Assembly (NCBI GenBank): GCA_963722255.1
Contig: CAVRJO010000001.1
Location: 672,001 to 736,000, forward strand
Source: Candidatus Babeliales bacterium
GTDB taxonomy: Bacteria > Babelota > Babeliae > Babelales > JANWKD01
DNA length: 64,000 bases
Direction: 5' to 3'
A program made the position numbers and the translations under genes. The notes beneath the pieces were generated by a model. It did no database searches. It saw nothing but the letters and a program-made list of their open reading frames with translations, and was not told where the DNA came from. Numbering within the stretch: position 1 is the stretch's first letter; each line of letters opens with the position of its first letter. Below are positions 2,021 to 62,290 of the stretch, piece by piece.

Positions 2021-2155
2021 TAGCCAAACGTGCACCCGGAAACCTAATACGCAAGCATTAATGTTGAATTGGTGCATATTCGTGTGGGGAGAGGAATCCA
2101 AGGGAACATTGGTGTTCTTTTGGCTTTAGGTCTTTTGACATAAAAATACCTAAAT
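2021..2155 (+). repeat. Structured multi-hairpin repeat, copy A
   Basis: TGCACC/GGTGCA stem, apical TAATAC/GCATTA hairpin and terminal TTTAGG...CCTAAA hairpin; alignable to copies at 2838, 4046, 25596, 42500, 62087. Confidence 0.85.
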
Positions 2156-2157
2156 AA

Positions 2158-2285
2158 TAAAATCCACCTACAGAACAAATAACCAACAGGGCCTCGCAGT
2201 AAAATACGGGCCGTTGTTGGTTTTATACTTGTAGTGTATACTGAGTAAGAATGGTAAACAGATATTTTTATATAAATGGAGTTAT
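2158..2285 (+). promoter_or_regulatory. groEL 3'-UTR module copy L2 (terminator+promoter+RBS)
   Basis: AACCAACAGGGCCTCGCAGTAAAATACGGGCCGTTGTTGGTT; TTGTTG-17bp-TATACT; AAATGGAG before ATG 2286; closely matches 510-639. Confidence 0.8.
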
Positions 2286-2837
2286 ATGAGGAAGTTGTTA
2301 GCAATTTTATTATTCGTATATGCCCCAACGAATATTGTATATCCCAATGATTTAATCGAAGAATGGACTGCAAAAGATTTAGCTGAATATACCCTTAAAT
2401 ACATAAACCTGCTCTACATGGAAGAAAATCAATGTGCAGCAAATGATCAATGTAAAGCATATTATAAAGATGATATGTCCGAGTTTGAATCAACGCTAAA
2501 AAAAATTTCCAGTCAAAGACCTGAATTGATACCGGAAGCGCTTGATGAGCTCATTCCCAATGAAAAAAGTAGCAAATTCACTCGAGAACGGTCAGTTGCA
2601 GTTGTAAGCCTTTATTCACGTAATAGAGAAAATAGCAAAAAAAAAGTTAAAGACAAAAATTATACCATTGAAGAAAAACTCGAAGCGAAATATGGAATAA
2701 AAAAAATAGATGGCGTTGAACCAAGTTCAAGCAATTGTAACGCTTGGTCACTTCAAAACCTTTTTAGAACAGCAGATAATGAATGCACACATATTCATCG
2801 CTCTCTCAGGTTTATTCAGAAAATAAAAAATTTATAA
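2286..2837 (+). CDS. Hypothetical exported protein
   Basis: 183-aa ORF with signal-peptide-like N-terminus and GGAG RBS. Confidence 0.8.
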   Translation: MRKLLAILLFVYAPTNIVYPNDLIEEWTAKDLAEYTLKYINLLYMEENQCAANDQCKAYYKDDMSEFESTLKKISSQRPELIPEALDELIPNEKSSKFTRERSVAVVSLYSRNRENSKKKVKDKNYTIEEKLEAKYGIKKIDGVEPSSSNCNAWSLQNLFRTADNECTHIHRSLRFIQKIKNL

Positions 2838-2972
2838 AATATTTCCGCTAGTGCGTCATGAGCCCAAAATCATGAGGCTGCTAAAGCCTCAATGATGTGT
2901 GGTCATATACGCATCCAGGGAACCATTGGTGCTCTTTTAGTTACGGTATTTTGGGTAAACAAAATACTGTAG
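2838..2972 (+). repeat. Structured multi-hairpin repeat, copy B
   Basis: ATTTCCG start, TCAT-GAGGCT/AGCCTC-ATGA apical stem, TACGGTATTTTG/CAAAATACTGTA terminal hairpin. Confidence 0.85.
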
Positions 2973-2975
2973 TAA

Positions 2976-3100
2976 AGAATTCAGTCGTACAAAACGTAAA
3001 AAGGGCTCGCTTGATTGGCTGGCCCTTTTGTTATTTATATTCAAATAGTGTATACTGGGTAATATCAGTAAAAGCATATTTTCATGTAAATGGAGTTTTT
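2976..3100 (+). promoter_or_regulatory. groEL 3'-UTR module copy L3
   Basis: AAAAGGGCTCGC...GGCCCTTTT hairpin; TTGTTA-17bp-TATACT; TTTTCATGTAAATGGAG before ATG 3101. Confidence 0.8.
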
Positions 3101-3979
3101 ATGAAAAAAATCTTATTATTATGCCTAATTCTGTTACCGCAGATATTAAAAGATACGCGATGTTCAGATAAACAAACAAAAGAAGCGACTTACAAAAAAG
3201 TTGAATTTCTTTTCTACCTTGATAAAGATCTAAAGCCCTGGGCCCAAACACAAAATGCCATCGCCGAATTAACAGAAGCATGCCTAGATAATCAACCTAA
3301 GATTCATGATAAAGATGCGATCGAGATACTAAAAAAATACGATATGGTTGATTCTGATGGTGTTATTAACAAATGGGTGTGTGAAGCTGTACAAAAAATT
3401 GAAAGATCATATATCAATTTTGAAAATTTCATAAATTCACTTTCAGACACTCAAGATAAAAACAAACTTTGCGAAGTTGCTGAAGCATTGTACGACTTAC
3501 ACCAATCATACCATTGTAACCCACACACCAAGTTAAACAATCAAATTTTGCAAAAATATGATTTAATTGAACCTGATGGAGCGTTAACCGAAGCTGTATA
3601 CATTAGACTCGAGGAGGCAAGCTCATTCTATGAAGACATTATAGAAAGGGCTCAGGATGATGATGAAGCGTATGATGGTTACCCCGATTTTGTAAAAATT
3701 AAAGAACCATTAATTAACATAATGATTTTAATAAACAATATTATTAATCCAAAATCAAAAGAAAGCGCTTTTGAGCATGCTCGCGCATGGTTTGACATTA
3801 ATAATGCCTATGCAACAAAAAACTTGTTTGTAGATAATACATTTTTACAAAACTACGGACTCATTGATAATAATGGGAAGATCACTCAAGAAGCATATAT
3901 CGCCATAAGTCATCTAAAAACATCAATGAAGATTTTTGATTTTGCACATGTACGACCCGATCGCGGATTTCGCTTTTAA
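3101..3979 (+). CDS. Hypothetical exported protein with three copies of an ILxKYxLxDxxG domain (true start probably 3101, not 2897)
   Basis: MKKILLLCLILL after GGAG RBS; ILKKYDMVDSDG, ILQKYDLIEPDG, FLQNYGLIDNNG. Confidence 0.85.
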   Translation: MKKILLLCLILLPQILKDTRCSDKQTKEATYKKVEFLFYLDKDLKPWAQTQNAIAELTEACLDNQPKIHDKDAIEILKKYDMVDSDGVINKWVCEAVQKIERSYINFENFINSLSDTQDKNKLCEVAEALYDLHQSYHCNPHTKLNNQILQKYDLIEPDGALTEAVYIRLEEASSFYEDIIERAQDDDEAYDGYPDFVKIKEPLINIMILINNIINPKSKESAFEHARAWFDINNAYATKNLFVDNTFLQNYGLIDNNGKITQEAYIAISHLKTSMKIFDFAHVRPDRGFRF

Positions 3980-4045
3980 AAAAGCAAGTTTATGAAGAAT
4001 GCAAAGAAATATTTGAAGCTGAAGACGATGAAAAATAAAAAATTT

Positions 4046-4195
4046 ATAAAATGTTTCCGGTAGCGCGTTATGAATCTGGAATTTTGATGCGTCGGCATCA
4101 ACAATGGAATGGTTCATATATGCGCGGAAGAGCATTCCACCAGCATGGTGGTGTCCTTTTGGTTTTAGGTATTTTTGACATAAAAATACCTAAGG
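4046..4195 (+). repeat. Structured multi-hairpin repeat, copy C
   Basis: TTCC/GGAA, GCGCG/TGCGC, TGAATC/GGTTCA, TTGATGC/GCATCAA, CCACCA/TGGTGG and TAGGTATTTTT/AAAAATACCTA stems. Confidence 0.85.
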
Positions 4196-4204
4196 AAAAT
4201 AATT

Positions 4205-4326
4205 TGTGGCCAATAGAGAGATACATAAGAGAAGAATCTCTTATGGGCCCTTTTGATATTTAAATTCTAATAGTGTAAACTAGGTAATATAAGTAATACT
4301 ATATTTTCATGTAATATGGAGTTTTT
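4205..4326 (+). promoter_or_regulatory. groEL 3'-UTR module copy L4 (diverged hairpin)
   Basis: GGGCCCTTTT hairpin end; TTGATA-17bp-TAAACT; TTTTCATGTAATATGGAG before ATG 4327. Confidence 0.72.
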
Positions 4327-4875
4327 ATGATGAAAAAACAGCTTTTTTCTTTCCTCGCTCTCTTAAGTTTAGCTACATTCTCTATTCATAGTTCAGTATT
4401 TGATAGATTAGATGAATTTATGGAAGCAGCATCTAAAAAAGGTACTGAATATTTAGAGAAAGAATTCGCACGAGAAAAGAAAAGAAAACATAATCAAGCG
4501 GTGCGCATTTTAACAAAGATAAATAGAAAGCATACTCGTGATTTTGAATGTCTTAACAAGACAACTGACATGTCTAAAAGAAACTGTCTTGCTTTCAATA
4601 CTCACACAAAAAAAGAAAATGATCCTTCAATCTATTTTGAACAAATTAAGGAACATCGCAAAAAAACTGAAAGTGCTGAGTTTGATCTCGATGAAAATGA
4701 AAATACCGATCCAAATTTAGATGCACAAATAATTAATGAAAAAATGAACCGTTTGCAAGAAGAATACAAACGACTCTTTAACGATGTAATTCATGCTACA
4801 CGGAGTAAAGAACGTAAAAAATCAGATAAAAAAACTACAGAAATAAGACAAGGTCGTACCATCATTATCAAGTAG
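4327..4875 (+). CDS. Hypothetical exported, charged protein
   Basis: 182-aa ORF with signal peptide MKKQLFSFLALLSL. Confidence 0.8.
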   Translation: MMKKQLFSFLALLSLATFSIHSSVFDRLDEFMEAASKKGTEYLEKEFAREKKRKHNQAVRILTKINRKHTRDFECLNKTTDMSKRNCLAFNTHTKKENDPSIYFEQIKEHRKKTESAEFDLDENENTDPNLDAQIINEKMNRLQEEYKRLFNDVIHATRSKERKKSDKKTTEIRQGRTIIIK

Positions 4876-4879
4876 ATAT

Positions 4880-4943
4880 AAATAAAATGGGCTCGCAGTA
4901 ATAATGCGGGCCTTTTTTATTCTATTAATATATATGGAATTTT
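4880..4943 (+). terminator. Shortened module copy L5 (terminator hairpin + RBS)
   Basis: GGGCTCGCAGTAATAATGCGGGCC followed by a T-run; same stem as the groEL terminator. Confidence 0.8.
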
Positions 4944-5372: not shown

Positions 5373-5730
5373 AGATTAATTAATTATATAATCATATTAT
5401 TTCATATAACAATAAAGGGACTTTTCATGAAAAGACTTTTACTATTCACACTTTTATGCGCTTCGCACAATACTTTTTGTTTAAAACAAGAAGATGCACA
5501 AAGTAATAAAAAGTCCGATGAAAAAGTTGGTGCACTTTTAACGGATATGATTAGAGCTAAATCAAGAAAAGAATGTAAAGAAATTGGTATGGCATATTAT
5601 GATCTGCACAGAGCATGTGAAGACAATGAATGCAAGGTAACTGATGAAACAAGTAAAGACATATTACAAAAATATAATCTTGTTGACTCTGAAGGTGCTC
5701 TTGAAGATGAAACTTGCAACTCTTTAGAAT

Positions 5731-6642: not shown

Positions 6643-6905
6643 AATACATAAAAAACAACCCTGATAGCATAAAATTCGTTGGCTTCATCAGCTTTTTAGA
6701 CGTTCCCTTGGTTATGTTAATGATTGGCGGAAAACTTGCATCTATCCTATTAAGATAAAGAACAGCTTTGTAAAGTGCGAGCTTTTTTTATTCTCAAGTA
6801 AATAATGTAATCTATGTAAAGTACTATTTTTTACGAGCTTTTTCATGCTACCGTATAATCATCACTATCAAAATATTCGAAGAAATTGATTTTTAAGGAG
6901 CATGT

Positions 6906-9593: not shown

Positions 9594-12500
9594 TTAGAGC
9601 GGCGGGAAGGATAAATTTGAAAGATTATTTGGAACTGTACTTGATACATTTGCTAAAAATTGTTGATACGTATTTGTTACGAAAACATAATTAATATCAT
9701 TATTATATGCAGTATTTTGAATAATTAAATTAGTGTTTGACGATGCACTTAATCCTCTTCCTGAAGAAAAGCCAGGCAATCCTGCAGCAAGTGTAGGGCC
9801 TGCAACACCAAATATTTCATTGTTTCTTATTATACCATTTGAAGGGAATATATACGCTAAGAATGTTTCTTCATTAACTGTAGAACCATTAGGATTTGAG
9901 GCTACTGCAATATAACGACCACCTCGTGACCAGCTCACTGCATTATTAGTTGCCCCATGTGTAACATTACTAATTGAAGAAAGTGATGCACCCGTATACT
10001 TTAAAGCACGAATATCAAAGCCTCCTGTACCTGCAGCCCCAACAATTATAGCATATTGCGCATCTGAAGCCCATTTAACACCATTAACATTACCTCCGTG
10101 TGAAAATGATGTTATTGGAACCAATGAAGAACCAGTGAAACTTGCTACTTGAACTTCTGGGCCTGATCCCGTAGTAGCACCAAACAAAATTGTTCTGCCA
10201 TCAAGTGCCCAATTAACACTAGTAACTGCAGGAATTGAAAGTGATGCAACTATTGTTAACGTAGTACCTTTTGAGAACTGTAACACAACTGGTCCGGCAG
10301 CGATAAATTCACTATCCGGTGACCAATCTATTGCCGAAGCTCCAAGATTACCATTTGATGCTACGATATTTAGAGCTGACCCGGTAAACTCAAGAACAAC
10401 TACTTCAGGATCAGGAACTGCTGCAAAAGAACTTTGATTATCTGAATATGCAATAAACTCTCCACTATGAGACCAAGCCATCCCCCCCGTAAATACCAGT
10501 GTTGGCGCAGATGCAACAAAATTCAACGAGCTACCATTAAATTGGTAAACAGAAATTGTTCCCACTGTACCATTATTTACTCCAACTGCTAAATATTGTC
10601 CATCAGGCGACCAGGATACTGCTAAGGGCGTTCCTACAGTAGTCACTGATGCAACTCGAACTAAATCATTACCAACAAATTTAACGACAGCAACATTTGA
10701 TGGTAATGATGCTATTGCAAGAAATTTATCATTCGGAGACCATGCAATAGCTTGAAGAGTAGTAGTTCCGGATAATGATGGCAACCCACCACTCGTTAAT
10801 GTTGTAAATGTATATTGCATTTGAATACCAAATGGTTGTGCATTTGATGTAGTTGTTGAATTACTAATTTGATTGTTCATTATAACATCAGCCTGCTCAG
10901 TTGCACCAATTAGTAGCCCTGTTGCTGTATTTCCAGAAAAAGTTGCTGATGTACTTGTCGCATCAATAATATTATCTTCAAATCTATTATTACCACCTGA
11001 AACTGCACTAATACCAAATGCATTTCCATTAGTTGCTGCAGTATTATTTATCGTAGACATATTAATTATGTTTGAAAAACTATTTATTAAACTAATTCCG
11101 GCACTTGTATTATTTGAAAAAACTGAATTAGATACACTACCATTGCTTGCAGACAATAAGGTAAGACCTGTTCCATTCGCAACAAAATCCGATTCGGTAA
11201 TCGTAAAATTGATTATTGGAGAACCAACCGTACCATTGAAAAATGCACCTATACCAGAAGTACGTATCGTTACATTTTCTAAAATTACATCTGTTATAGT
11301 ATCATTAATTTCAATCCCATTAGCGGTAAAATTAGAAATAACCCCATTTTCAATAAGCACCGTATTTGTTCCAGGTCCCACAGCTATTCCATTTACCCCT
11401 GGTACACTATTTCCTTGAGTAAGTGTGGCACATTGCAAATTTAAGGTAACATTCGAAGCATTAATGGTAATTGCTGATGAAGCTATTAATGGACTAAAAA
11501 CAATATTATTTGCCAGAATATACACACCCGGTTGTGTAATAGTAAATCCTGTAGTATCTACCATAGCTTGCGTGATTAATACTGGAGAACAAACAGTCTG
11601 ATTCAATATAGCATTTAACACAGTAAATGTTCCATTAAAATCTATTGTCAACGTACTCTTAATATCAGTCAATGATGTAAACACACCATTGAAATCTACA
11701 AACGTTTGATTACAGCATGCATTCAATGCAGTAAATGTTCCATTAAAATCTATTGTCAACGTACTCTTAATATCAGTCAATGATGTAAACACACCATTGA
11801 AATCTACAAACGTTTGATTACAGCACGCATTCAATGCAGTGAATGTTCCATTAAAATCTATTGTCAACGTATTCTTAATATCAGTCAATGATGTAAACAC
11901 ACCATTGAAATCTACAAACGTCTGATTACAGCATGCATTCAATGCCGTAAAGGTACCATTAAAATCGGTGGTTATAGTTTGTTTGATATCAGCTAAAATA
12001 GTCCAAGTGAAATCAAAATCGTTTTGAATAGTAGCACAGCAGGTTGTTACCGTTGATTCAATGCTCGTTAACGTAGTATAAACACCAGAAAGATCACACG
12101 ATCCTGTAGAAATAGCAGCGATAGCAGTGAATGTTCCGTTGAAATCAGTGGTTATTGTTGTTTTGATATCATTCAATGTAGTGTAAACGCCTGAGAGATC
12201 ACAAGCGCCAGCGACGATTGCCGCGATTGCAGTGAAGGTGCCATTAAAATCTGTGGTGATAGTTTGTTTGATATCAGCTAAAATAGTCCAAGTGGAATCA
12301 AAATCATTTTGAATAGTAGCACAACAGGTTGTCAACGTATCATTAAGATCCGCTAAAATTGTCCATGTGTTTATAAAATCTGTCGATACCGTCACCTTGA
12401 TATCATTAAGAACTGTAAATGTGCCTTCAAAATCATTTTGAATAGTAGCACAACAGGTTGTCAACGTATCATTCAGGTCCGCCAAGATTGTCCATGTGTT

Positions 12501-13085
12501 TATAAAATCCGTCGATACCGTAATTTTAATATCATTCAAAACCGTAAATACACCCTGAAAGTCTTTTTGAATTATAGCGCAACATTGCACAACAATTTGT
12601 GTCAAACGATTAAGTAGTTGCAGCACTTCAGCAAAATCGCACTCTAAAACAGTACCTACGGGGGCTCCATCGGTATTTCCGGGTGCATCAGGACGCGGTG
12701 CTTTTCCAAATTTTGTTACCTGTATTAACTTTTCAATAACAACCGGTAAAGCTTCTGCCAAATCTTGAACATCTAACAATGTAGCGCCATTTTCTAATTG
12801 TTCATGACAGGTCAAAACACTGTAGGGCAATTCATCAACCGTATTATTTTCACAAGCATCATCAATAACAATCCTTAATAGTTCATCAAGGCGTAACCCC
12901 ATAAGATTTTCCGGGGCAACAAGCATCTGCATCGTAGTATCTTGACTGCTCTTTGATTTAGGTAGAGTTTCGTATCGTTCTCGTTGTGCATTATAAGAAA
13001 TGTGAGTTTTTGATAAAACCGGTTGCAATACAACTGAAATAAGTGCCAACAAAAAGACTTTTTTAGCAAATTTTGTACGATTCAT
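9594..13085 (-). CDS. Large exported protein: Cys-Cys repeat stalk + right-handed beta-helix + WD40-like propeller
   Basis: Signal peptide MNRTKF...; DFNGTFT repeats; ITQPGVYILANNI, NVTLNL, IENGVISNF beta-helix; repeated WSPDGQYLAV-type blades. Confidence 0.85.
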   Translation of the reverse strand: MNRTKFAKKVFLLALISVVLQPVLSKTHISYNAQRERYETLPKSKSSQDTTMQMLVAPENLMGLRLDELLRIVIDDACENNTVDELPYSVLTCHEQLENGATLLDVQDLAEALPVVIEKLIQVTKFGKAPRPDAPGNTDGAPVGTVLECDFAEVLQLLNRLTQIVVQCCAIIQKDFQGVFTVLNDIKITVSTDFINTWTILADLNDTLTTCCATIQNDFEGTFTVLNDIKVTVSTDFINTWTILADLNDTLTTCCATIQNDFDSTWTILADIKQTITTDFNGTFTAIAAIVAGACDLSGVYTTLNDIKTTITTDFNGTFTAIAAISTGSCDLSGVYTTLTSIESTVTTCCATIQNDFDFTWTILADIKQTITTDFNGTFTALNACCNQTFVDFNGVFTSLTDIKNTLTIDFNGTFTALNACCNQTFVDFNGVFTSLTDIKSTLTIDFNGTFTALNACCNQTFVDFNGVFTSLTDIKSTLTIDFNGTFTVLNAILNQTVCSPVLITQAMVDTTGFTITQPGVYILANNIVFSPLIASSAITINASNVTLNLQCATLTQGNSVPGVNGIAVGPGTNTVLIENGVISNFTANGIEINDTITDVILENVTIRTSGIGAFFNGTVGSPIINFTITESDFVANGTGLTLLSASNGSVSNSVFSNNTSAGISLINSFSNIINMSTINNTAATNGNAFGISAVSGGNNRFEDNIIDATSTSATFSGNTATGLLIGATEQADVIMNNQISNSTTTSNAQPFGIQMQYTFTTLTSGGLPSLSGTTTLQAIAWSPNDKFLAIASLPSNVAVVKFVGNDLVRVASVTTVGTPLAVSWSPDGQYLAVGVNNGTVGTISVYQFNGSSLNFVASAPTLVFTGGMAWSHSGEFIAYSDNQSSFAAVPDPEVVVLEFTGSALNIVASNGNLGASAIDWSPDSEFIAAGPVVLQFSKGTTLTIVASLSIPAVTSVNWALDGRTILFGATTGSGPEVQVASFTGSSLVPITSFSHGGNVNGVKWASDAQYAIIVGAAGTGGFDIRALKYTGASLSSISNVTHGATNNAVSWSRGGRYIAVASNPNGSTVNEETFLAYIFPSNGIIRNNEIFGVAGPTLAAGLPGFSSGRGLSASSNTNLIIQNTAYNNDINYVFVTNTYQQFLANVSSTVPNNLSNLSFPPL
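11618..12550 (-). repeat. Coding tandem repeats in the giant protein (about three 108-bp units and two 129-bp units, built on an 18-aa sub-period)
   Basis: GTAAATGTTCCATTAAAATC at 11623 and 11731 (108 bp apart); AAATCATTTTGAATAG at 12301 and 12430 (129 bp apart). Confidence 0.9.
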
Positions 13086-13263
13086 TTTTTCTCCTACTTC
13101 TTTTTTTTTAGTTAACAAACTATCCAGAAAATTAAAAAAAGCAACATTTTTTTCAAGGCTTTAAAAAATAAATTAAAAAAAGCTATACTTGAATAAAAAT
13201 ATTTTCTGTTATACTATTTATTAAAATTAGCATAGCTTTAATAACTATTTTTTGGAAAAATTT

Positions 13264-17316: not shown

Positions 17317-17320
17317 CTTA

Positions 17321-19394: not shown

Positions 19395-19738
19395 CTGGAT
19401 CCTCGCGCATTCGCTCAGGATGACAGTTTTGCACTTTATTTTTTTTTACAAGGCCACAATGCACCACAAGAGATATTTATATCATTATTTCCTTTAAGCA
19501 CAACCGTTGAAGGCTCTGCAGCATATCCCAGCGGGATATGGGAGGAGCCGCCTTTTGTGCGACAGAGATTCCTAAGATACTTCTTAGGTGTCCTTTTGGT
19601 TTTAGGTATTTTTGACATAAAAATACCTAATTTAAAAAAATGTATTAAAGGCATTGGGCTTACAATATCTTTATAAAAAAAATCTTATTAAAAGGAATTA
19701 GGGTTATAGGGATTTTATAGCAGAAAAATACCTTATAA
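19395..19738 (+). repeat. Mosaic palindromic repeat: CGTC-type half-REP + variant structured repeat (copy G) + AGGTATT hairpins
   Basis: CTGGATCC...CAGGATGAC; 19497-19632 nearly matches the reverse complement of 25268-25402; 19681-19733 matches 25783-25834. Confidence 0.88.
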
Positions 19739-19739
19739 A

Positions 19740-21095
19740 CTAATCTTCTACAATCCGTATTTCAACAACTAAATTATCCGGTTGATCAAAGTCTTTACCA
19801 TCTTTCCTTACATTTGCAATATAAAGATTTTTTATTCTATATACAGGCGTTAGTTTTGCTTCTTTGCCTGAAAACCCATCAGCAATCTTTTGATCGGTAA
19901 AAAACCTCTTTTTTTCCCAAAGTTCATAACTAATATTTTCATCAACTGGTTCTAATGATGTCGCACCTAACTCATCTTTTTTGAGACGCCCCATTCTCCA
20001 TTCTAAAAGTCTAATTCGTTTTGGAGGAGAATCAAACGTAAAATAACGACTATATTGTTTACTTTTTCTTAATTTTTTTGGCTTTTGCAAAGCAATAAGA
20101 TTGTTTTTTTGTCCTTCTATCTCAATCGGTTTTTTATGCGCTCCTTGATGCATAAATGCATTATAAAGAAAAGGAGATTCTGGAGAATCACCATGATAGG
20201 TAATGCCAAATTTTGATGCTTCAACTGAAGATCCCCAACGTCCCCAAAAGTTAATCCATTCTTGGCCCGCTTGAGGATGTAATAACGTTCCAATATATTT
20301 TCCGTGTTCCCAACCTTTCCATGAAGGCCCTTTAGCACTTGTCTGATCAACATCGCTACTTAATCGAGTAACATAGGGATAAGTCCCATGACTATTCTTT
20401 CCAACATATACAACAGGGTGCGTCCCATTTGGATCATTCTGCATAGCATCATTTACAAGCTCCAGATCATCACGTTTAACCAAATCACCTTTCTTCTGTT
20501 GATGCCGTGCAAAAAATAGTTGACTAATTTCATACCCAATTTCATGCTCATCGGATTTTTTTAAATAGATGTTTACATGCTCCCAATCACCTTCATGGTA
20601 ACCAATGTCTCGTAAAAAATAATCAAGCCCTTTGGCAATAACAATCGAACCTTGCCATGGATAAAAGCACCAAAATTGTAACACTACGTTACCATTTTCT
20701 CGCTCTACTGCATTCACATAACAATCTTGCTGACTTAGATTATGAGCATCATAACCAGGACCTTTTTTAAGCCCTTGTTTATCCCCTTCAAGATTAAGAT
20801 AATATTCACCTTCCGGATTTGGTGTAGTATAAGGAGCACTACCGACCAGTTGCGAATTTAATGAACCCCGATCAAGAAGCTTCACCGGAGATTTGCTCCT
20901 ATCATTATAACGAAGATTGAGAGAAGAATGTGCAAGCATCCAATCAACCGAAGCTGGTGATGATTCATCAGTGTGATGAATCCTAAAAAGTGGCCCAAAG
21001 GTTTTTATAAGCTTTGTAATAGTTTCAACCGATAACTCTGCATGGGCTTGATTCGTAACCAAAAAGCTCAATAACAACAGCGTGATTTTTTTCAT
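19740..21095 (-). CDS. Vps62/DUF946-like exported protein
   Basis: FGPLFRIH, LQFWCFYPW, HEGDWEHV, YVGKNSHGTY, WINFWGRWG motifs; signal peptide. Confidence 0.8.
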   Translation of the reverse strand: MKKITLLLLSFLVTNQAHAELSVETITKLIKTFGPLFRIHHTDESSPASVDWMLAHSSLNLRYNDRSKSPVKLLDRGSLNSQLVGSAPYTTPNPEGEYYLNLEGDKQGLKKGPGYDAHNLSQQDCYVNAVERENGNVVLQFWCFYPWQGSIVIAKGLDYFLRDIGYHEGDWEHVNIYLKKSDEHEIGYEISQLFFARHQQKKGDLVKRDDLELVNDAMQNDPNGTHPVVYVGKNSHGTYPYVTRLSSDVDQTSAKGPSWKGWEHGKYIGTLLHPQAGQEWINFWGRWGSSVEASKFGITYHGDSPESPFLYNAFMHQGAHKKPIEIEGQKNNLIALQKPKKLRKSKQYSRYFTFDSPPKRIRLLEWRMGRLKKDELGATSLEPVDENISYELWEKKRFFTDQKIADGFSGKEAKLTPVYRIKNLYIANVRKDGKDFDQPDNLVVEIRIVED

Positions 21096-25189: not shown

Positions 25190-25840
25190 TTACTAAGGTA
25201 TTTTGTTTGCCACAAAGTTTCTTTATAAAGGTATTGCATGCACAATACCTTTAATATATTTTTTTAACTTAGGTATTTTTATGTCAAAAATACCTAAAAC
25301 CAAAAGGACACCTAAGAAGTATCTTAGGAATCTCTGTCGCACAAAAGGCGAGCCCTCGCATATTCCTTCGGAATATGCGAGGGCTCTTCAACGGTTGCGC
25401 TCAAAGGACTTTTCATTTTTATTACTGGATCCCCCAGCCGACGCTTATCCAGGCCTTCCTACTTCGCTCCCATGAAGCTTCGAAGGACATGTCCGGCCTG
25501 TTCTTCGAAGTCTTGACGTAGTAGAACTTGGCAAGCTTTGTCATCCAGAGACCTTCACTTAGGTGAAGGTCTCTGGATGACAATCGGCAATTTATAATAT
25601 TTCTCCGGTAGCTACACGTGGTCCCGAAAACTTAATGCTGTAAGCATTAATGTTGAAGTGGGCCATATTGGAGCGGGAGAGCAATCCAACAGCATGTTGG
25701 TGTCCTTGTAGTTAAGGTATATTGGACACACAATATACCTTTAATAAAAAAAATTTTGACATAAAAATACCTTAGTAAAAAAAATCTTATTAAAAGGAAT
25801 TAGGGTTATAGGGATTTTATAGCAGAAAAATACCTAAGAA
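25190..25840. repeat. Large mosaic of palindromic repeats (variant copy H reversed, nested REP-like units, structured copy D)
   Basis: GAGCCCTCGCATATTCC/GGAATATGCGAGGGCTC; near-perfect palindrome TTGTCATCCAGAGACCTTCAC-tTAg-GTGAAGGTCTCTGGATGACAA; copy D at 25596-25745. Confidence 0.9.
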
Positions 25841-25900
25841 AAAAATTCTTGTTACTTATCAAGAAAATTGTATACCATGTACTAACTAAAATAATCCACA

Positions 25901-30884: not shown

Positions 30885-31540
30885 AGTTATAACGCCCCCG
30901 TAGACCGGGGGGCTTGACGGCTGTTAGCAGTCCCAAGGACTGCCAGATTATAAACTTTGACTATATTTTAAAATTGACCTTCTTCATCAAAACCTTAGGC
31001 TATCCAGCTGTTCTTGATTTTTCACGTAGGCTTTAACATTGCTCCAATTCATGATCCTACTGTTGAAACCGCATATCCCCTTGCCCAAAACTTCTCGCCA
31101 TTAAAATTTCTTTTGCCGACCGCCAAATTGTCGCGCAACTGCAATCGCACTTTTACCTTTTATATATCCAACTATCTCTGCTATTGAATATTTCGGCGGA
31201 ATACTTATCAGCATATGCACATGATCTTGTACCATGTGGCCTTCCAAAATCTTACTTTCCCTTTGTCCTGCCAATTCATGAAATATTGGTCCTAAGAATT
31301 TACGAATTTCTCCATAAAGTTTCTTTTTTCTATATTTTGGAACAAATACAATATGGTATTTGCAGTTAAATTTAGAATGGCTTAAACTTTTAAATGATGT
31401 TTCCATATATATTTTTTTTCGAGCCGTCACGCCCTAAAAAAATATATCATTGGAAACATTTTTTTTACACTTGAATCTAAAGGCCTAGCCTTGAAAGTCT
31501 CACTAGTCAAACTAGTGGTTTACCTATCTTTCAATTATAA
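30885..31540 (-). mobile_element. tnpA: IS200-family element, tnpA (Y1 HUH transposase) frameshifted near its 3' end
   Basis: KYHIVFVPKYRKK, DHVHMLISIPPKYS, KGKSA; end hairpins GCCCCCG/CGGGGGGC (30894-30913) and CACTAGT/ACTAGTG (31501-31517). Confidence 0.92.
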
Positions 31541-42464: not shown

Positions 42465-42812
42465 CTTAGGTATTTTGTTTGTTCAAAATACCTAAAACCA
42501 AAATTTTTTATTAGCAGTATTTTGCATGCCCAAAATAGTGCAGACAAAAGGGCACAAACAGTTCCTTTTGATCCCTTTCCCATGCGTATATGCACCACAC
42601 ATCATTTCGGCTTTGCAGCCTCATGATTTCGGGTGCACGACGCATTACCGGAATATATTTTATAAGTCTGATTTTTTACTAAGACATGTATGTTTTTCAA
42701 CACAAAAAACAATTATTAATCGCAAAGTTGTCATTAAAGAGCAATATACCAATGAATGTCATTGCGAGAGCCTACTTCGCTTTGCGAAGTATGGTTCGTG
42801 GCAACCCAGTAA
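42465..42812 (-). repeat. Structured repeat copy F (reverse) + CGTC-type REP
   Basis: 42500-42735 is close to the reverse complement of 62015-62235; TGTCATTGCGAG...GCAACCCAG at 42757-42809. Confidence 0.88.
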
Positions 42813-44884: not shown

Positions 44885-47800
44885 ATGAAAAAACATTTCA
44901 TACACTTCGCTCTTATTCTCATGATCTGCAGTTCATTACCAATTATTGCCATGGAGATGAGTTTTCAAGATCAAAAAGAAACGATAGAAACATATATGAC
45001 TGAAGGTGCTAATCTTGATCAATATAATCATAGTGGCAATACGCCTTTGGTCTTAGCAGCTCAAAACAATGATTGTAACCTGGTTCACCAGCTTGTTGCA
45101 TTCGGTGCAAGCGTCAACACGCAAGCATTAAATGGTTCAACGCCCCTTTCGGAAGCCGTTCGTTGTCGAAATTTTAATGTTGTTAATTTCTTATTAGATC
45201 ATGGGGCTCAAAGCGATATTCAAGATGAAAAAGGAGATACGGCTCTTTCTCTTGCACTTGATTATGGATTTGCAGAACTTGCACAGCTTATGGTTTCTAG
45301 CGAAAACCAGAGCAAGCCTAAAAGAACAGTAAAAACAGGAGACAAACAAAATCAGGACGATAAGAAACTACCACAAAAAAATAGAACAACTTCCAAAAAA
45401 CAAAAGAAGAAATTTTCTCATTTTACAGCACAACTCAGAGCAGGCGTTGATTCCGTAAAATTATTGATGACTAATCATAAAAAAAATACTTCACAACAAC
45501 AAAAAGCTTTACATGATTTTTTTAATAAAAAAATGAGTTCTTATGATAAACAATCATGTATAGAAGAACATTCTCAATTAGTTTCAGCTCTTTATTCAAA
45601 TAATATGCAAAAAATAGAAGCACTTTTAGAGGGTCAATCATTTGATATAAATCAACAAGATACTATTATGGGATTAACACCCTTAGCAGAGGCTTGCTTT
45701 ATCGGTAATTATAGGGCAGTTAAAAAATTCATAAATACCAGGGAAGCTCTCATAGAATTGCCTGATAATAAAGGATTAACTCCAATAATGCGTTCAATTT
45801 CACAAAAGCATGACAGAATTGTTCGATTTTTAATAAAAAAAGGAGCCAATATAAATGCTCAAGATCATGATGGCGAAACAAACTTAATTAAAGCAATATG
45901 TTTTGGAACTCCCCAAACTGTTGATTTATTAATTGATATGGGCGCAGATATAAACATATGTGATAACAATGGATCTGGTCCACTTTTCTTTGCAGTTACT
46001 AATACAAATCCTTTACTTGTTGAGAAGTTAATTAATAGAGGTGCATATATTGACGGACACTCATCTGATACAGTGCCGCTCTTAGAAGCCCTAAGAAAAG
46101 TTAATGCTTCTATTGCTCAATTTTTAATTGAACATGGTGCAAATTGCAAAGCTCGTGGACGGGATGGCATTACTGCTAATAAATTTCACCCGCAGCAAGC
46201 AGCGGGGTATTGAATTTTTTTAAGGATTTCTATCTACATGAAGAACATCTGACCCAGATCTCTTGGCGTACGAGTAGGGTCTTTTTTGTGCAACATCATG
46301 TAATCCCTTCCCTGGTTTTTTACGTATTCTGCCACTCGTTTTTCGCTTCCATGCTTACTTACCGTGTTTACGAAATATCCATCAGACCAAAATTCTCCAC
46401 CCCATAGCTGCCTCTTTACTTCGGGAACTCGTTTGAAAATTTCCCGCGCCGTTATACTTTTTATTTTTCTAATGATATTCGTAGGACTATACGTCGGTAC
46501 GGACTGCACAAGAAAATGAACGTGATCCCCATCTGTTCCTATTTCTAGAAACTCTATCTGATAACGTTTTTCTATCTCAAGACACACCAACCTCAATACT
46601 TTGTCTACTTCCTCTGTAAAAACCGCTCGCCTATATTTTGCTGGACAAACTATATGATACATCAGAACCGATACATTATGACTTTTGTGTATAAACCTAC
46701 TTAATTTACTCATTCTCCCAATTTATCAGGACTTTTTATTTATTCCATTTTTTTTATCTGACTACGCGGCAAGCCGCGGGGAATTGTACCCGTAGAGATT
46801 AAAAAAGCAAAAAGAGACTTGAGGCTTGAACGTCTTGTGCCATTAATGAAAGAACAGATTTCCTCACAGCCTCAAGAATATAAAGAACAAATCGAAGAAA
46901 ATTATAATGTTGTTGATGCCCAAATGGAAAATGAAGTTAATTTTAATGAAGAAAATAGTTCTTCAGAAGAAGTGGTTGAACGAAGAAGAGATCAAGGAAA
47001 GGCTGATGAGCTATCACTGCATAAAAAAACAAAAAAGGATATTAATTTTAATCAAAACAATACATGTCAAGAGTTTTTTGATAAAAACGAAGAAGAAACA
47101 GTGCAACCCGAGCTTGCCGTAATTCTATTACAGGCTATTAAAAAAGATAATCTTACCGCCATTCAAGATTCTATTGTAAAAATGACCACTATCAATCAAC
47201 CAATAAATCAAGAAGGCCGTACTTTACTTGCTCATGCAATCGGCACTCACAAAACTAAAATGGCTCAATGGCTAATCGAAGCAGGCGCGGATATTGATAA
47301 ACATGACAAATATGGAATGACGCCCTTACTTAGGGCCATAATGGCGGAAGAATCTATAATTGCTCAAGAATTAATTATTCGTGGGGCTGATATTAATAAA
47401 AGTAATGAAGATGGAATTACGCCATTGCTATTTGCACTGCAAAACGCACAATATCCAATTGCTCGCTTATTAATTATTAATGGGGCTGATATTAATAAAA
47501 GTGATAAGGATGGAACAACACCATTACAATTTGCCTCGTCTTGCTGCTCTCCCGGCAATGTTGAAATCATTCAATTATTGCTTAAAGAAGGCGTTGATAT
47601 TGAAAAAAGTAATATACATGGAACAACAGCATTACTCTATGCTCTTCGGGGAGGTCTTCCTTTGAGTCCCAAAGTTGCTCGCCTATTAATAATTGAAGGC
47701 GCTGATATTCATAAATGTGACAATAGAGGAATAACGCCTCTAATGTGGGCTATTAGGAGAAAACAACCTGAGCTTCTTCAAGAATTAATTACTAAAGGGG

Positions 47801-48261
47801 CTAATATTAACAAAAGCAATAAGCATGGAACCCCATTAATAATAGCTATAAAACACGTTTGGGGACTTGAAGATATTAAATTGTTTATTAAAGCCGGCGC
47901 AAATGTCAATGATCGTGACGATGAAGGGAATTCAGCTTTACATTATGCTTTCAGGAGGGATATTCTAGAAGGCTTGCCTTTTATAAGTCAATTGAACGAG
48001 TATATCCCTATCATAAATTTATTAATTGAACATGGTGCAGATGTAAACGTGCCATATGAAAAAAATAGCAACATAACGTTATTGCAATACATTGCTGAAC
48101 GTAGTCAATTTTCTGAAGTTCTTAAATGCATTCTCTCTCGCAATCCAACTCTTGATGAAGAGAGCAAAATCCAAGTTCTTAAATGGGCCACTACAAGCAG
48201 AAATCAAGATGCAATTAATATATTAAAAGAAGAAAAAAAGAAACAATGCATAATCAGCTAA
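44885..48261 (+). pseudogene. Large exported ankyrin-repeat protein split by IS200, with C-terminal CaaX box
   Basis: Ankyrin repeats on both sides; GRDGITA before the IS joins IKKAKRDLRLERL after it; ends KKKQCIIS*. Confidence 0.85.
46178..46800 (-). mobile_element. tnpA: IS200-family element with intact tnpA (46234-46713)
   Basis: YHIVCPAKYRR, DHVHFLV, KSITAR, WGGEFWSDGYF; end hairpins CCCGCAGCAAGCAGCGGG and CGCGGCAAGCCGCG. Confidence 0.94.
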
Positions 48262-58950: not shown

Positions 58951-58987
58951 ATATTATCAAAATAATTAACAATCAAAAGGATTTTTT

Positions 58988-59653
58988 ATGAAAACATTCT
59001 TAGTAAGAACTTTATTTCTTTGCACCGTATTATGCACTGCAGCATCAGATATTTTTTCAATGGAAACAAAACAGCTGCCCCAACCAATAATTGAAGATAC
59101 AAGAAACACCGACAGCAGAGAAAAAGAGAAGGTTGATGATAATGGCCCATTGCCAAAAGAGCTCCACATTACTCCTTCACCATTCTCATTGCTTAACTTT
59201 GCAAAAAAGAATTGGTTACCAATTGTTGGGCTCACAACACTTTCTGCATATTGTGTTTATGACAGGCAAGCATTACCGGAAGTTATTTCATGGAGCAAAA
59301 ATCTTTGGCAAACACTACCCAGGATATTCAAGGGTTTTGTTGGTCTTGGTGTTGCATACAAAACATATAACTACTTCTTCAACAAGCCAGCGCTTTACAA
59401 TAATTCAAACCACAATAAGTGCATTACATGGGAAGTCTTTGAACCATATATGGAAATGTTGGCTAAATCTCTAGAAGTGTATCAACTAAAGAAAAAAGAT
59501 CCCAAAGCTGCTATTGAACTTGCAATTGAACATCAATTGCAACAAGAACAAGAACTCATGAAATACATGCCCGACATTGGATTTGCAGGCCAAGATGGAT
59601 TTGGTTCACCATTTCCTAAATCTACAAATACTCAAACACCAGAAACTGATTAA
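58988..59653 (+). CDS. Hypothetical exported protein
   Basis: Signal peptide IFS-MET; KGFVGLGV module shared with the 59856 C-terminus. Confidence 0.8.
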   Translation: MKTFLVRTLFLCTVLCTAASDIFSMETKQLPQPIIEDTRNTDSREKEKVDDNGPLPKELHITPSPFSLLNFAKKNWLPIVGLTTLSAYCVYDRQALPEVISWSKNLWQTLPRIFKGFVGLGVAYKTYNYFFNKPALYNNSNHNKCITWEVFEPYMEMLAKSLEVYQLKKKDPKAAIELAIEHQLQQEQELMKYMPDIGFAGQDGFGSPFPKSTNTQTPETD

Positions 59654-59855
59654 ATTTGTTTCATATTTTTATAAGAGAATAAAAGATTTTAATGACTTAA
59701 TTTTCTTTTTTCATAAGTCCAAATAGACAAGATATTATTTTTTCAAACTGCCTCAAACAAAACAAATCTGCTTGATATCTTCACTTGTTTTGTTATTATT
59801 AGATTATTAAAAAATAATAAAAACAATTTTTTTCAATTATAAAATACAGGAGCCC

Positions 59856-61808
59856 ATGAAAAAGCGTCTCATACCTTTAGCCATTGTTTTCACTATCTGC
59901 GGTTCATTACCTCTATTTGCAATGGAGCTGAGCGTTCAGAGTCAAAAAGAAAAGATAGAAACATATATGACTGAAGGCGCCAATCTTGATAACTATGATC
60001 ATAATGGCAATACACCTTTGTTCTTTGCAGCTCAACATAATGACATCAACCTTGTTCATAAACTTGTTGCGTCTGGTGCAGGCGTTAACACGCAAGCACT
60101 AAATGGTTCAACGCCTCTTTCGGAAGCAGTTCGTCACCGAAATATTAATATTGTTAGCTTTTTATTAGATCATGGAGCTCAAAGTGGCATCCAAGATGAA
60201 AAAGGTGATACAGCACTCTCGCTTGCGCTTGATAATGGTTTTATCGATATTGCACAGCGCATAGTATCAGGAGAGAATAAGAGCAAGGCTAAAAAAAATA
60301 GGACAGTAAAAAATGAAGCGGAAAAAAATCAAGGTGAAAAAGAACATAAAAAAAGTAAAAAAGAGCAAATTAAGAATGCTACACATTTAGTTGTGTATGA
60401 AATAAAAGCCGGTTTTGATTTTAAACATATACAAGAACATCGCAACGTTAGTGAACATGTGCAGAGAAGAGCATTGGATGTGTTTAAAAAAGAATATCAA
60501 AGCACCATAAATGTAGAAAGAAGAGCTCAGATTGATAATGCATGGCCGCTATTGAAGGCTGCGATGCTTAATAATGATAGTAAGGCAGTAAAATGCTTAG
60601 TAAATGATCCAACTATCGATATTAATATGCAAGATATTTTCAGCTGTACACCTTTAGTCTTAGCTGCAAGCAAAGGTAATTTGAAGATTGTAAAAGCATT
60701 AGTAAATCATAAAAAGATAGTGATTGACGTGCCCAATGTGGTTGGTAGGACTCCATTAATGGAAGCCGTTTTTTATGAGCATTTTGAAGTTGCAAAACTT
60801 CTAATAAAAAAAGGCGCAAATATTAATGCTCATGACGCTTTAGGGTTTACACCTTTAAGAATTGCTATTTCCAAAAAAAATCATGCAATGGTTGATTTAC
60901 TGCTCAGTTTTTATAGCGAACTAGATATTAACATGAAAAGCATAAATGGTTATTCTGCACTCTATCATGCTGCAAGAGATGGTCAGTTTGATTTAGTTGA
61001 GAAGTTGGTGCAGTATGGCGCCATAATTGAAGATGAATCTGAAGAAACAAGCCCTTTGAATTGTATAGAAATATCTCAAAAAATAGAAAAATATTTACGG
61101 AAAGTTGTTAGAAAAAGAGCACATGAAATAGCGGGAGAGCACTATGAGCAAATTCAGGAAAAAAACCAAAGCATGGAAACTCATCTTGTTATTGATAGGA
61201 TAACAAATGATCGTTATGACATTCAAAATATAACTGCAAAAGACATATCAAAAATAATCGAAGGTTTTTTTGGCCTTGGTATTGTTGCATGCAAAATATT
61301 ATCTAATGAAGCATCTAAACATAATAATTCAGAAAACAGTTTCGCTTTACAAATGCAACAAATAATGGAAAAAAATCCAAAAGCTTATGCATTTTTCATG
61401 GAAAATCCAAATGGTGCAGCGTGTTTTGTACAGTGGATGTACTATCAAACGATATTAGACCTAATACGTAATAAAAACAACAAAAAAGAAGGTGCCAAAG
61501 GCTTTGTTGACCGTTGTATTGTTGCATGTAAAACATCATTTAACGCACCATTTCAACGTAGTAATTCAGAAAACAATTCCGCTTTACAAATGAAACAAAT
61601 GATGGAAAAACATCCCGTAGCTACTGCATTATACATGAAGCCGATATACCATAAAATGATATTAGATCTAATACGTAATATGAATGACAAAAAAGAAGAA
61701 ATGTCAAAGATAATCAAAGGCTTTGTTGGCCTTGGTATTGTTGCATGTAAAGTATCATTTAATGAAGCATCTCAACGTAATAATTCAGAAAACAATTTCG
61801 CTTTATAA
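59856..61808 (+). CDS. Exported ankyrin-repeat protein; N-terminus paralogous to 44885; C-terminal repeated module
   Basis: IETYMTEGANLD, VNTQALNGSTPLSEAV, QDEKGDTALSLAL shared with 44885; three GF.G..IVACK modules. Confidence 0.9.
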   Translation: MKKRLIPLAIVFTICGSLPLFAMELSVQSQKEKIETYMTEGANLDNYDHNGNTPLFFAAQHNDINLVHKLVASGAGVNTQALNGSTPLSEAVRHRNINIVSFLLDHGAQSGIQDEKGDTALSLALDNGFIDIAQRIVSGENKSKAKKNRTVKNEAEKNQGEKEHKKSKKEQIKNATHLVVYEIKAGFDFKHIQEHRNVSEHVQRRALDVFKKEYQSTINVERRAQIDNAWPLLKAAMLNNDSKAVKCLVNDPTIDINMQDIFSCTPLVLAASKGNLKIVKALVNHKKIVIDVPNVVGRTPLMEAVFYEHFEVAKLLIKKGANINAHDALGFTPLRIAISKKNHAMVDLLLSFYSELDINMKSINGYSALYHAARDGQFDLVEKLVQYGAIIEDESEETSPLNCIEISQKIEKYLRKVVRKRAHEIAGEHYEQIQEKNQSMETHLVIDRITNDRYDIQNITAKDISKIIEGFFGLGIVACKILSNEASKHNNSENSFALQMQQIMEKNPKAYAFFMENPNGAACFVQWMYYQTILDLIRNKNNKKEGAKGFVDRCIVACKTSFNAPFQRSNSENNSALQMKQMMEKHPVATALYMKPIYHKMILDLIRNMNDKKEEMSKIIKGFVGLGIVACKVSFNEASQRNNSENNFAL

Positions 61809-61844
61809 ATTCGACAAATGATTGAAAAAAATCCAGAAGCGGCT

Positions 61845-62290
61845 CAGGGCAACCGCACTATAAAGATTGAATTAATAAGAGAAAAATACGTTTGGAACGG
61901 CAGTTAAATTCACTCGTCTCATTGCGAGCAAATGCGCGGCAACCCAGTTATAAAAATAAAAAATTCATTAATAAAATGACCTATTTATCCACTGGGTTGC
62001 TTCGCAAGCTCGCAATGACAACCTTGCGATTAATAATCGTTTTTTTTGTTGCAAGAAAACATGTCTTAATGAAAAAAATAGCTTATAAAATATTTCCGAT
62101 AGCACGTCGTGCACCCGAAATCATGAGGCTTAAAGCCTCAATGATGTGTGGTGCATATACGCACGGAAAAGGGACAAAAGGAACTGTTTGTGCCCTTTTG
62201 TCTGCAGTATTTTGGGCACGCAAAATACTGCTAATAGGAAAAATGCCCTTTGGTATTAAAGGTATTCGGCATGCAATATCTTTATAACTA
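61845..62290 (+). repeat. MITE left end + CGTC-REP doublet + structured repeat copy E + AGGTATT hairpin
   Basis: CAGGGCAACCGCACTATAAAG; CATTGCGAGC...CTCGCAATGAC; TGCACC/GGTGCA and GAGGCT/AGCCTC stems. Confidence 0.88.

Follow-up and report, generated by a model that had tools for sequence, protein, structure and literature searches.

The BOX elements of Streptococcus pneumoniae, built from boxA, boxB and boxC, are modular dispersed repeats with stable predicted folds that lie near genes, and whose modules also occur alone or recombined. Rickettsia palindromic elements (RPE) are selfish palindromic repeats of 100-150 bp that live in an obligate intracellular host, preserve their structure and are found in frame within protein genes. 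A third group is formed by the guide RNAs of transposons: the omega RNAs of TnpB and IscB, the bridge RNAs of IS110 and the seekRNAs of IS1111 are structured molecules that measure about 100-200 nt and contain a pseudoknot or internal loops; orphan copies of them exist. Here we describe a dispersed structured repeat from the genome of a Candidatus Babeliales bacterium (assembly GCA_963722255.1), a member of the Babeliales/Dependentiae, which are a large, almost uncultured lineage of protist-parasitic intracellular bacteria. The repeat was noticed in a stretch of 64,000 nt of this genome (the window, hereafter), where an original prediction had proposed a candidate new structured RNA or single-stranded DNA (ssDNA) element, a proposal that covariation and the lack of any Rfam match now support. 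With a confidence that stands about midway between doubt and certainty, we regard it as a new and undescribed family of non-autonomous, modular structured repeats, similar to REP (repetitive extragenic palindromic) sequences, the bacterial interspersed mosaic elements (BIME) and BOX, which folds as a single strand, probably RNA. It is filed with the REP/BIME, BOX and RPE kind because it is patchy, multi-copy, truncated, nested and paired.

In the literature that we searched, neither DNA repeats nor structured RNAs were described for the Babeliales/Dependentiae phylum. A match to a known Rfam family, which the original prediction had set against itself, was found neither in the window, nor with the copies, nor in loci of relatives. 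Thus, no Rfam 15 model reached its gathering score anywhere in the 64 kb of the window; nine copies searched with E values of up to 10 reached at best 23 bits, with a microRNA model whose gathering score is 60; and 11 loci of relatives searched with E values of up to 0.1 gave one unrelated 28-bit match outside the element.

The repeat family and its copies

The genome analysed (G000) comprises 1.62 Mb in two contigs, C1 and C2, with 34% G+C, and the window corresponds to C1:672001-736000. A covariance model, R1, was built from the 15 full copies of the genome and run on the window with all filters off, and a second covariance model covers the 3′ module of the unit alone. The six copies and two variants of the original prediction are all present at the places given there, with R1 coordinates that agree within a few bases. 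Its account of them was right in the positions, and had missed that the copy at 2001 is devoid of the 5′ foot of its hairpin and that the one at 2832 is internally deleted. Copies belong to two types, A and B, and the following were found in the window:

25592..25749, + strand: A-type full copy that serves here as reference (R1 176.7 bits)
62083..62239, + strand: A-type full copy (R1 155.8 bits)
42506..42665, - strand: A-type full copy, with about 95 nt of upstream flank in common with copy 62083 (R1 154.2 bits)
4044..4200, + strand: A-type full copy, sited in the 3′ region of a gene for a small exported protein (R1 147 bits)
2001..2161, + strand: A-type copy without the 5′ foot of the hairpin; contains the stop codon of the open reading frame (ORF) 1601-2020 (R1 110.2 bits)
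2832..2978, + strand: A-type copy with an internal deletion (3′ foot and linker gone), whose leader box holds the stop codon of ORF 2286-2837 (R1 109 bits)
19479..19637, + strand: B-type copy, with another 5′ hairpin on the same 3′ module (R1 49.3 bits)
25262..25418, - strand: B-type copy, head-to-head partner of the A copy at 25592 (R1 48.9 bits)
42467..42502 (C1:714468-714503), - strand: solo P5-type hairpin directly 3′ of copy 42506-42665 (R1 23.3 bits, model positions 116-151; 3′-module model 33.5 bits)
62244..62341, + strand: two degenerate 3′-module or P5-type hairpins directly 3′ of copy 62083 (R1 20 and 17.2 bits)

Genome-wide, nhmmer and the covariance model detected 15 full copies, 5 of the B type, two weaker full-length matches and several solo hairpins, and the 3′-module model gave 33 matches in the 1.6-Mb genome. 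All the full copies (15/15) are intergenic.

Consensus fold and folding strand

From 5′ to 3′, the unit is composed of an A/T-rich leader, a long hairpin, a purine-rich linker and two further hairpins, P4 and P5. The fold was analysed with an alignment of the 15 full copies of this genome (A2), an alignment of matches from nine other genomes (A3) and a MAFFT alignment of 46 3′ modules (A4). In the reference copy, the parts are located as follows:

25592..25600, + strand: leader box rich in A/T, with the sequence TTATAATAT here and TTATAAAAT in most copies, just 5′ of the hairpin foot (A2 columns 1-12 and flanks); by its sequence it resembles a -10 box
25603..25680, + strand: 5′ domain, one long irregular hairpin (helices 1-4 of A2)
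25686..25700, + strand: P4 hairpin CCAACAGCATGTTGG (91.1% paired in A2; 88.7% paired in A4, with 4/6 pairs compensated)
25714..25741, + strand: P5 hairpin AAGGTATATT/AATATACCTT (95.9% paired in A4, with 8/9 pairs compensated)

The 5′ domain is made of a foot CTCC/GGAG (TYCC/GGRR), a conserved GGTA bulge, the helices P1, P2 and P3, a CGAAA-type internal loop and a CATAT junction. The loop motifs had been described as largely retained, and so they are, the junction being invariant and the internal loop mostly kept. In the same way, the stems that had been said to persist through compensatory changes are real and covary on A2, where standard pairs occupy 92.7% of the cells, compared with 79.6% after shuffling and 37-50% with slid partners, and where both sides have changed in 22 of the 48 pairs. 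None of 500 shuffles matched the observed value for four of five measures, whereas the fifth, the number of further pair types, was at shuffle level (285/500), and these controls overstate significance because the copies within a genome are kin. Covariation in a larger alignment, on which the original prediction was to stand or fall, grows with alignment size: A3, with 57 matches (52 distinct) fitted to the model in a manner that favours nested helices, is 88.6% paired with 46 of the 48 pairs compensated, and A4 is 92.3% paired with compensation at 17 of its 20 pairs.

Paired cells of the G.U kind are more frequent than those of the A.C kind, both in this genome (43:16) and in the relatives (105:35), and because G.U outnumbers A.C by about 3:1 it is one strand that folds. 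Folding energies for the sense and antisense strands of three copies were -61.7/-59.9, -51.4/-42.2 and -49.0/-38.3 kcal/mol, better for the sense strand in the three of them, and the z-scores of the tested folds went from -3.4 to -8.1. The early suggestion that G-T pairs favour folding on one strand is therefore borne out by the G.U excess and by the better sense fold. The constraint acts on one strand only, and the folding single strand is probably RNA.

Other features were considered within the unit and dropped. The K-turn (kink-turn) consensus does not fit the GGTA bulge. An alternative pairing offered by RNAalifold, GGG(89-91)/CCC(119-121), competes with the pseudoknot described below and covaries poorly (A.C in 2 copies, G.U in 7), and its purine run is not conserved in other genomes. 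A short ORF within the 3′ module was likewise abandoned, as its frames, compared by eye, differ between subtypes. Altogether, the consensus structure is well supported, and the two working covariance models now allow the element to be annotated as a repeat, which avoids confusion with genes or assembly noise.

A pseudoknot in the 3′ module

In an H-type pseudoknot, the P5 loop pairs back through its 5′ part to the five bases that come right after P4; the original prediction had overlooked this helix together with the modular build of the unit and the head-to-head pairing of 25262-25418 with 25592-25749. Its two strands in the reference copy are:

25701..25705, + strand: pseudoknot 5′ strand TGTCC, followed by a conserved U-rich linker TT(G/T)T; pairs with 25724-25728
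25724..25728, + strand: pseudoknot 3′ strand GGACA, given by the P5 loop GGACACAC (25724-25731)

Compensation affects 4/5 of the pseudoknot pairs on A3 and 5/5 on A4, where 90.4% of the cells are paired, and these counts are an independent test of the helix because neither model contains it. At least eight versions were found, among them TGCCC/GGGCA, TGTCC/GGACA, CTCC/GGAG, TGTA/TACA and CGCCC/GGGCG, as well as TGCAC/GTGCA, TGCTC/GAGCA and CACCC/GGGTG. On A4, the top two pairs of P5 are U-A in 46/46 and 43/46 modules and the remaining P5 covaries freely, and a UU is always present directly 3′ of the pseudoknot strand. In triplex pseudoknots, a U-rich loop occupies the groove of an A-U-rich stem, a pattern that the invariant U-A pairs and the UU of this module would appear to match.

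Modular build and module exchange

The unit is modular. Its 5′ hairpin, about 75 nt long, is variable and tolerates sequence change provided that pairing is kept, and it is joined to a conserved 3′ module that spans about 60 nt (P4, U-rich linker and P5). Between genomes, the 5′ hairpin has an almost wholly different sequence on the same architecture, and the 3′ module stays recognisably alike. Within this genome, B-type copies have the same 3′ module but another 5′ hairpin, five A copies combine one identical 5′ domain with 3′ modules of three different kinds, and copy C1:577326 mixes P1, P2-P3 and a 3′ module from three different subtypes. Moreover, 5′ hairpins and 3′ modules are each also found alone, and deletion derivatives formed by leader, linker and P5 stand directly behind several full copies. 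The original prediction had spoken of independent insertion or conversion, which fits this mosaic of helix types among copies as well as the filled and empty orthologous sites described in the next section.

At loci L125, L110 and L047 of three relatives (G122, G136 and G004, respectively), an extra small hairpin follows P5 on its 3′ side; its GCATA loop is conserved and its stems covary (GCAC/GTGC and GCCC/GGGC). One copy in the present genome has a possible equivalent, CCT-GCATA-AGG.

Around the pair 25262-25749, at least five other dispersed repeats form a mosaic, and the sequence between the two partners is itself composed of such repeats:

25419..25591, no strand assigned: G+C-rich insert between the B and A partners, composed of other dispersed repeats and ending in a perfect hairpin GTCATCCAGAGACCTTCAC/GTGAAGGTCTCTGGATGAC

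The component repeats of this insert are also found elsewhere in the genome, and the same insert occurs inside the pair C1:571948-572396. Other repeats neighbour the family. Short G+C-rich dispersed repeats, such as CTTCGCTTATCCACGCCTTCCGGCTTGGCAAGCTT and GGTTGCTTCGCAAGCTCGCAATGACAAC, are present at window positions 63792-63845, 61919-61960 and 61992-62020; dozens of copies with 85-100% identity exist in G001, G003 and G004 and often adjoin the structured element, and their motif CTCGCAATGAC is, we presume, reminiscent of RPE sequences. A repeated module AATCTTATTAAAAGGAATTAGGGTTAT with a hairpin AGGGATTTTATAGCAGAAAAATACCT was seen at 19664-19744 and 25766-25846. It occurs at least five times in the genome and usually adjoins an A or B copy on the 3′ side.

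Distribution, turnover and arrangement

Two sets of genomes were searched, namely 61 relatives and a phylum sample of 151 genomes, evenly drawn from 96 genera, all of one order. Matches were found in 10 of the relatives. In the phylum sample, the full model detected the family in 21 genomes (16/96 genera) and the 3′-module model in 34 genomes (20/96 genera), with up to 31-34 matches per genome. Public records with matches confirmed by the model are Candidatus Dependentiae/Babeliales, metagenome-assembled genomes titled 'bacterium' and one contig titled Fluviicola, where the match is partial and placed at the very end of a 5.8-kb contig. None of the sequence-pattern matches in unrelated named bacteria was confirmed by the covariance model, and the pattern scan gave 0 matches in viral contigs. 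The family has been seen so far only in Babeliales/Dependentiae, where it is accessory, patchy and multi-copy.

The positions of the copies turn over between close genomes. In the congener G001, the flanks of the three copies examined (3/3) map to copy-free places of the present genome. At one such site, a gene and a tRNA gene are separated in G001 by nested repeats of about 650 bp, the element among them, and in our genome by about 110 bp with no repeat. The G001 repeat nest abuts the tRNA gene (L037 1890-2000), and in the present genome the 3′ end of a tRNA lies about 90 nt upstream of copy C1:577329 (G000 C1:577230-577320).

Copies can be truncated, nested, in tandem or head-to-head, and insertion sequences (IS) land in them. 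By eye, the match table of the relatives contains 20 close head-to-head pairs (minus-then-plus, with the 5′ ends facing and the 3′ modules outward) and 0 tail-to-tail pairs, and more head-to-head pairs are present in the scans of the 151 genomes. In this genome and in G032, the pairs unite a B copy with an A copy and are thus heterotypic. Both flanks of the copies consist of conserved A/T-rich boxes, and inverted ends are found only on A+B pairs, where they correspond to the 3′ modules. In G136 and G122 there are dense tandem and inverted arrays without genes. An IS4-like element (462-aa ORF, YREK-type motif) has entered the same site of the 5′ hairpin in G004, after CATATACGC, at four loci and in both orientations; the flanks of these insertions (L046, L047, L048 and L049) look like a duplication of 9-12 bp. 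The elements also mark hot spots of recombination and IS insertion beside arrays of exported- and ankyrin-type genes.

Gene context and transcription

As originally noted for three copies that were placed between a stop codon and a groEL-type module, copies 2001, 2832 and 4044 precede a repeated terminator-plus-promoter module:

505-636, 2152-2283, 3013-3111, 4238-4336 and 6770-6819 of the window: repeated module with a G+C-rich terminator hairpin and T run, a promoter-like box TAGTGTATACT, a ribosome binding site and a start codon

These three copies differ strongly from one another, and two of them (2001 and 2832) supply the stop codon of the upstream ORF. Because they are sited between a stop codon and the canonical terminator-plus-promoter module, the three are probably part of the mRNAs of small exported proteins. 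The module follows groEL and precedes each of several tandem genes for small exported proteins (families D9, D10 and D12), and the ORFs ending at 2020 and around 4028 have a common C-terminal EECK-IFE-DDE motif.

In this genome, most copies have a -10-like box (TAAAAT or TATAAT) 5-8 nt ahead of where pairing begins. An own promoter was nevertheless set aside, as no conserved -35 box goes with it and the consensus scan is at background. The best sigma-70-like matches in 400-4500 (11/12 positions) lie at 2135-2163 and 4175-4203, with TTGACA in the P5 loop and TAAAAT/AATAAT 17 nt on, which suggests a possible outward-facing promoter in one P5 subtype; promoter-like sites in 400-4500 are overall at shuffle level (23 vs 20.2).

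Elsewhere in the window, ARAGORN found no tRNA or tmRNA. Tandem coding repeats of 108 bp were observed at 11596-12563 in a 1174-aa ORF (9594-13118, minus strand), and ankyrin-type repeats of 99/108 bp at 45926-47948, where the ORFs that contain them lie near 47 kb; these coding repeats correspond to families D1-D3, D7 and D8.

Weighing the explanations

If the family is a repeat of the REP/BIME/BOX kind, the folded molecule would be the transcript of the constrained strand. The family would multiply and turn over where intergenic DNA is permissive, for the most part behind genes; what replicates would often be an A-type and a B-type copy paired head-to-head with the 3′ modules outward, and modules may be swapped between copies by recombination or conversion. 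A copy transcribed with its neighbouring gene would give rise to a very stable pseudoknotted 3′ structure, and we infer that the fold is recognised either by the spreading machinery or by the cell, with possible effects on neighbouring transcripts.

A number of results speak against this explanation. The mobilising enzymes that we looked for do not accompany the family: the Y1 transposase (PF01797) does not co-occur with it in the phylum sample (13/34 carriers vs 35/117 non-carriers), nor is the reverse transcriptase (PF00078) associated with it (5/34 vs 7/117); TnpB (PF07282) has 0 matches in this genome and is present in 1/10 carriers among the 61 relatives, and IS110 (PF01548) has 0 matches in this genome. 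By eye, no copy-specific direct repeat that could be a target site duplication (TSD) was seen in the flanks of 15 copies, the single units show no terminal inverted repeat (TIR), their ends being unlike, and no autonomous version with a gene between paired ends was found in the two wide pairs opened (G004 and G111). With crude ORF calls, the 5′-side gene is co-directional in 10/15 copies here and 15/21 in relatives, and the 3′-side gene is convergent in 9/15 and 10/21, respectively, so many copies would be read antisense by their neighbours, and the orientation counts speak for no more than a mild sense bias. The copy flanks hold no conserved -35 box, and P5 is not followed by a terminator-like T run. 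To this must be added the inflated significance of the shuffle controls mentioned above and, finally, that a structure kept across the order, pseudoknot included, exceeds the known needs of REP-like repeats and favours a working RNA.

Several mobile elements of the genome were examined in this regard. It contains 11 Y1_Tnp matches, which correspond to IS200-like elements of two families of about 630-660 bp with 95-99% identity within each family. Two of them are in the window:

46195-46815, - strand: intact IS200-like element with ORF 46234-46713 (159 aa)
31014-31430, - strand: IS200-like element with a stop inside the Y1 domain

These elements end in their own, different G+C-rich hairpins, and in this genome none of the model matches flanks or lies near a Y1 gene, so there is no arrangement of the RAYT (REP-associated tyrosine transposase) type. 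The copy-rich genomes G136, G122 and G073 have no Y1 match. A Y1-driven mobility like that of REPINs (inverted REP doublets) was rejected, given the lack of association across the 151 genomes, and so were an omega RNA and a palindrome-associated transposable element (PATE), with no TnpB here and different IS200 ends. A gene-less pair of IS200-type end hairpins, a PATE-like remnant at C2:507540-507670, lies directly 3′ of the copy C2:507674-507832. In G004, an IS110-type element of 1254-1261 bp with a 313-aa ORF has copies at loci L027, L047 and L059 that are 99.7-99.9% identical, and at two of these loci it sits upstream of an A-type copy, at a distance of 40-100 nt; the ends of the IS, as judged from the three copies, exclude the repeat, and this together with the absence of IS110 here discards a bridge RNA or seekRNA, even if an IS110-type ORF adjoins copies in G004. 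The reverse transcriptase genes of this genome are three identical ORFs of the group II intron type (436 aa; C1:85394-86704, C1:189443-190753 and C2:248477-249787), and retro-mobility or a retron RNA was dropped, as there is no association with reverse transcriptases. For its 1.6 Mb the genome is also rich in other insertion sequences (IS3, IS4, IS5, IS481-like and IS630). No parent IS with the same ends appeared in the IS inventory of the genome, among the neighbours of copies in nine genomes or in the wide pairs. Those opened in G004 and G111 contain an IS4-like or IS110-type IS, a Sel1-type ORF or ORFs for hypothetical or exported proteins, and no transposase belonging to the pair itself. 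Across nine genomes, no protein family recurs beside the copies, except for a single pair of ftsY-like ORFs.

A structure kept across at least 20 genera while its sequence diverges would also be accounted for if copies were independently transcribed small RNAs acting in trans, with the 3′ module as a protein-binding scaffold, the 5′ hairpin providing specificity or cargo, the many copies as an expanded gene family, and the broken ones as pseudogenes. A pseudoknot that covaries through at least eight variants, the invariant top U-A pairs of P5 and UU, as in triplex pseudoknots, the -10-like box ahead of the first paired base in most copies here, the lack of a co-occurring mobilising enzyme and an orientation independent of the neighbouring genes, as expected for an RNA with its own promoter, are all in its favour. 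Yet the module was not found in 117 of the 151 genomes, which is not what a core function would show, positions differ between congeners, and many copies are truncated, IS-disrupted or nested; neither a conserved -35 box nor a terminator after P5 is seen, the variable part is a closed hairpin and not a single-stranded guide, and no neighbouring protein family recurs across genomes. We thus consider these trans-acting RNAs unlikely, though well worth keeping in mind. It is rather unlikely as well that we are facing a new class of functional RNA, in which a triplex-type H pseudoknot module recruits a protein or acts by itself (processing, circularisation or self-cleavage), is joined to an exchangeable hairpin, and either spreads via an RNA-level step or acts in trans on the host or the bacterium; were this true, the head-to-head pairs would be divergently transcribed twin genes.

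The remaining explanations are less attractive. That the fold is an ssDNA substrate of an HUH-type (Y1) transposase, as in REP/REPIN-RAYT systems or in PATEs derived from IS200/IS605, with the conserved left flank as target, would agree with the strand-specific constraint, with single units that have a conserved 5′-flank box and neither TIR nor TSD, with inverted doublets as in REPINs, with the 11 Y1_Tnp matches of the genome (two of them in the window) and with the IS200 remnant that adjoins copy C2:507674. This becomes quite improbable in view of the Y1 counts in carriers and non-carriers, of copy-rich genomes devoid of the enzyme, and of IS200-like ends that are different hairpins and Y1 genes that no family copy flanks; besides, known TnpA or RAYT substrates are far smaller than the hairpins found here, and the 10/15 copies on the C-rich strand show no clear bias against the GC skew, a count that we set aside as uninformative on replication strand. 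An ordinary MITE (miniature inverted-repeat transposable element) of double-stranded DNA, where the A+B pair is an internally deleted DDE transposon, its ends of about 65 bp are the 3′ modules, and covariation derives from the two arms plus transposase specificity, would explain 20 head-to-head pairs against 0 tail-to-tail with the modules outward and always A with B, in a genome where DDE insertion sequences abound. We find it very improbable, since most units are single and have no TIR, a 3:1 bias of G.U over A.C is unexpected for drifting inverted repeats, and the pseudoknot, P4 and P5 covary within one arm, which transposase binding at two ends does not explain; moreover, no TSD was seen and no parent IS with these ends was found. 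Hardly probable at all is a cis-acting element of the flanking genes (3′-UTR stabiliser, terminator-like signal, outward promoter or riboswitch-like sensor) that is kept site by site: the flanking genes are unrelated across copies and genomes, 11/36 copies are not behind a co-directional gene, as against the 25/36 that are, and arrays of many units exist without genes. Three copies do lie in the probably transcribed 3′ region of tandem exported-protein genes before a canonical terminator, and the two best promoter-like matches in 400-4500 do put TTGACA in the P5 loop, but this match occurs in one P5 subtype only, the total of such sites is at shuffle level and no T run follows P5.

For the repeat family that we prefer, the interest lies in a selfish-behaving sequence with no recognisable mobilising enzyme, for which whatever recognises the fold could be a new mobilisation route or RNA-protein system. 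Placed as they are, these elements may also bear on the reshuffling of parasite effector repertoires.

Comparison with known systems

A few known systems can be separated from this family by simple features. Integron attC sites, located behind cassette genes, are imperfect palindromes bounded by an R″ box RYYYAAC and an R′ box GTTRRRY. In our element, ATCCAAC fits RYYYAAC, its partner GTTGGTG fails GTTRRRY, and both form a 6-bp internal hairpin instead of the ends, so an attC site was rejected. There is no riboswitch-like recurrence upstream of one pathway across genomes, most copies being behind genes. With the guide RNAs of transposons, the family shares being a multi-copy structured element, and omega, bridge and seekRNAs travel with mobile DNA; it differs from them in that no single-stranded guide segment is present and neither TnpB nor IS110 is encoded in the genome.

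Closer are the modular and palindromic repeats of other bacteria, compared here by their properties only. BOX has a similar size and separable modules, in a different phylum, and we know of no pseudoknot in it. RPE sequences are found in frame within protein genes, in contrast with the family described here, for which 15/15 full copies are intergenic and two copies merely supply a stop codon.

The likeness to REP, BIME and REPIN, whose properties are described in part in two papers (PMC2817692, PMC3184786), is broad: multi-copy, intergenic palindromic repeats mostly located behind genes, compensatory upkeep of the structure, inverted doublets, mosaic clusters with other motifs and a role as IS landing sites. 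The differences are also clear: in place of a hairpin of 20-40 nt, the unit has five helices plus a pseudoknot in about 155 nt, the build is modular, copy numbers are in the tens and not in the hundreds, no gene of the RAYT type has copies on its flanks, and Y1 is not associated with the family. Altogether, the lack of a matching enzyme, the size, the pseudoknot, the exchange of modules and a structure kept across the order set this family apart from the REP/BIME, BOX and RPE kind with which it is filed.

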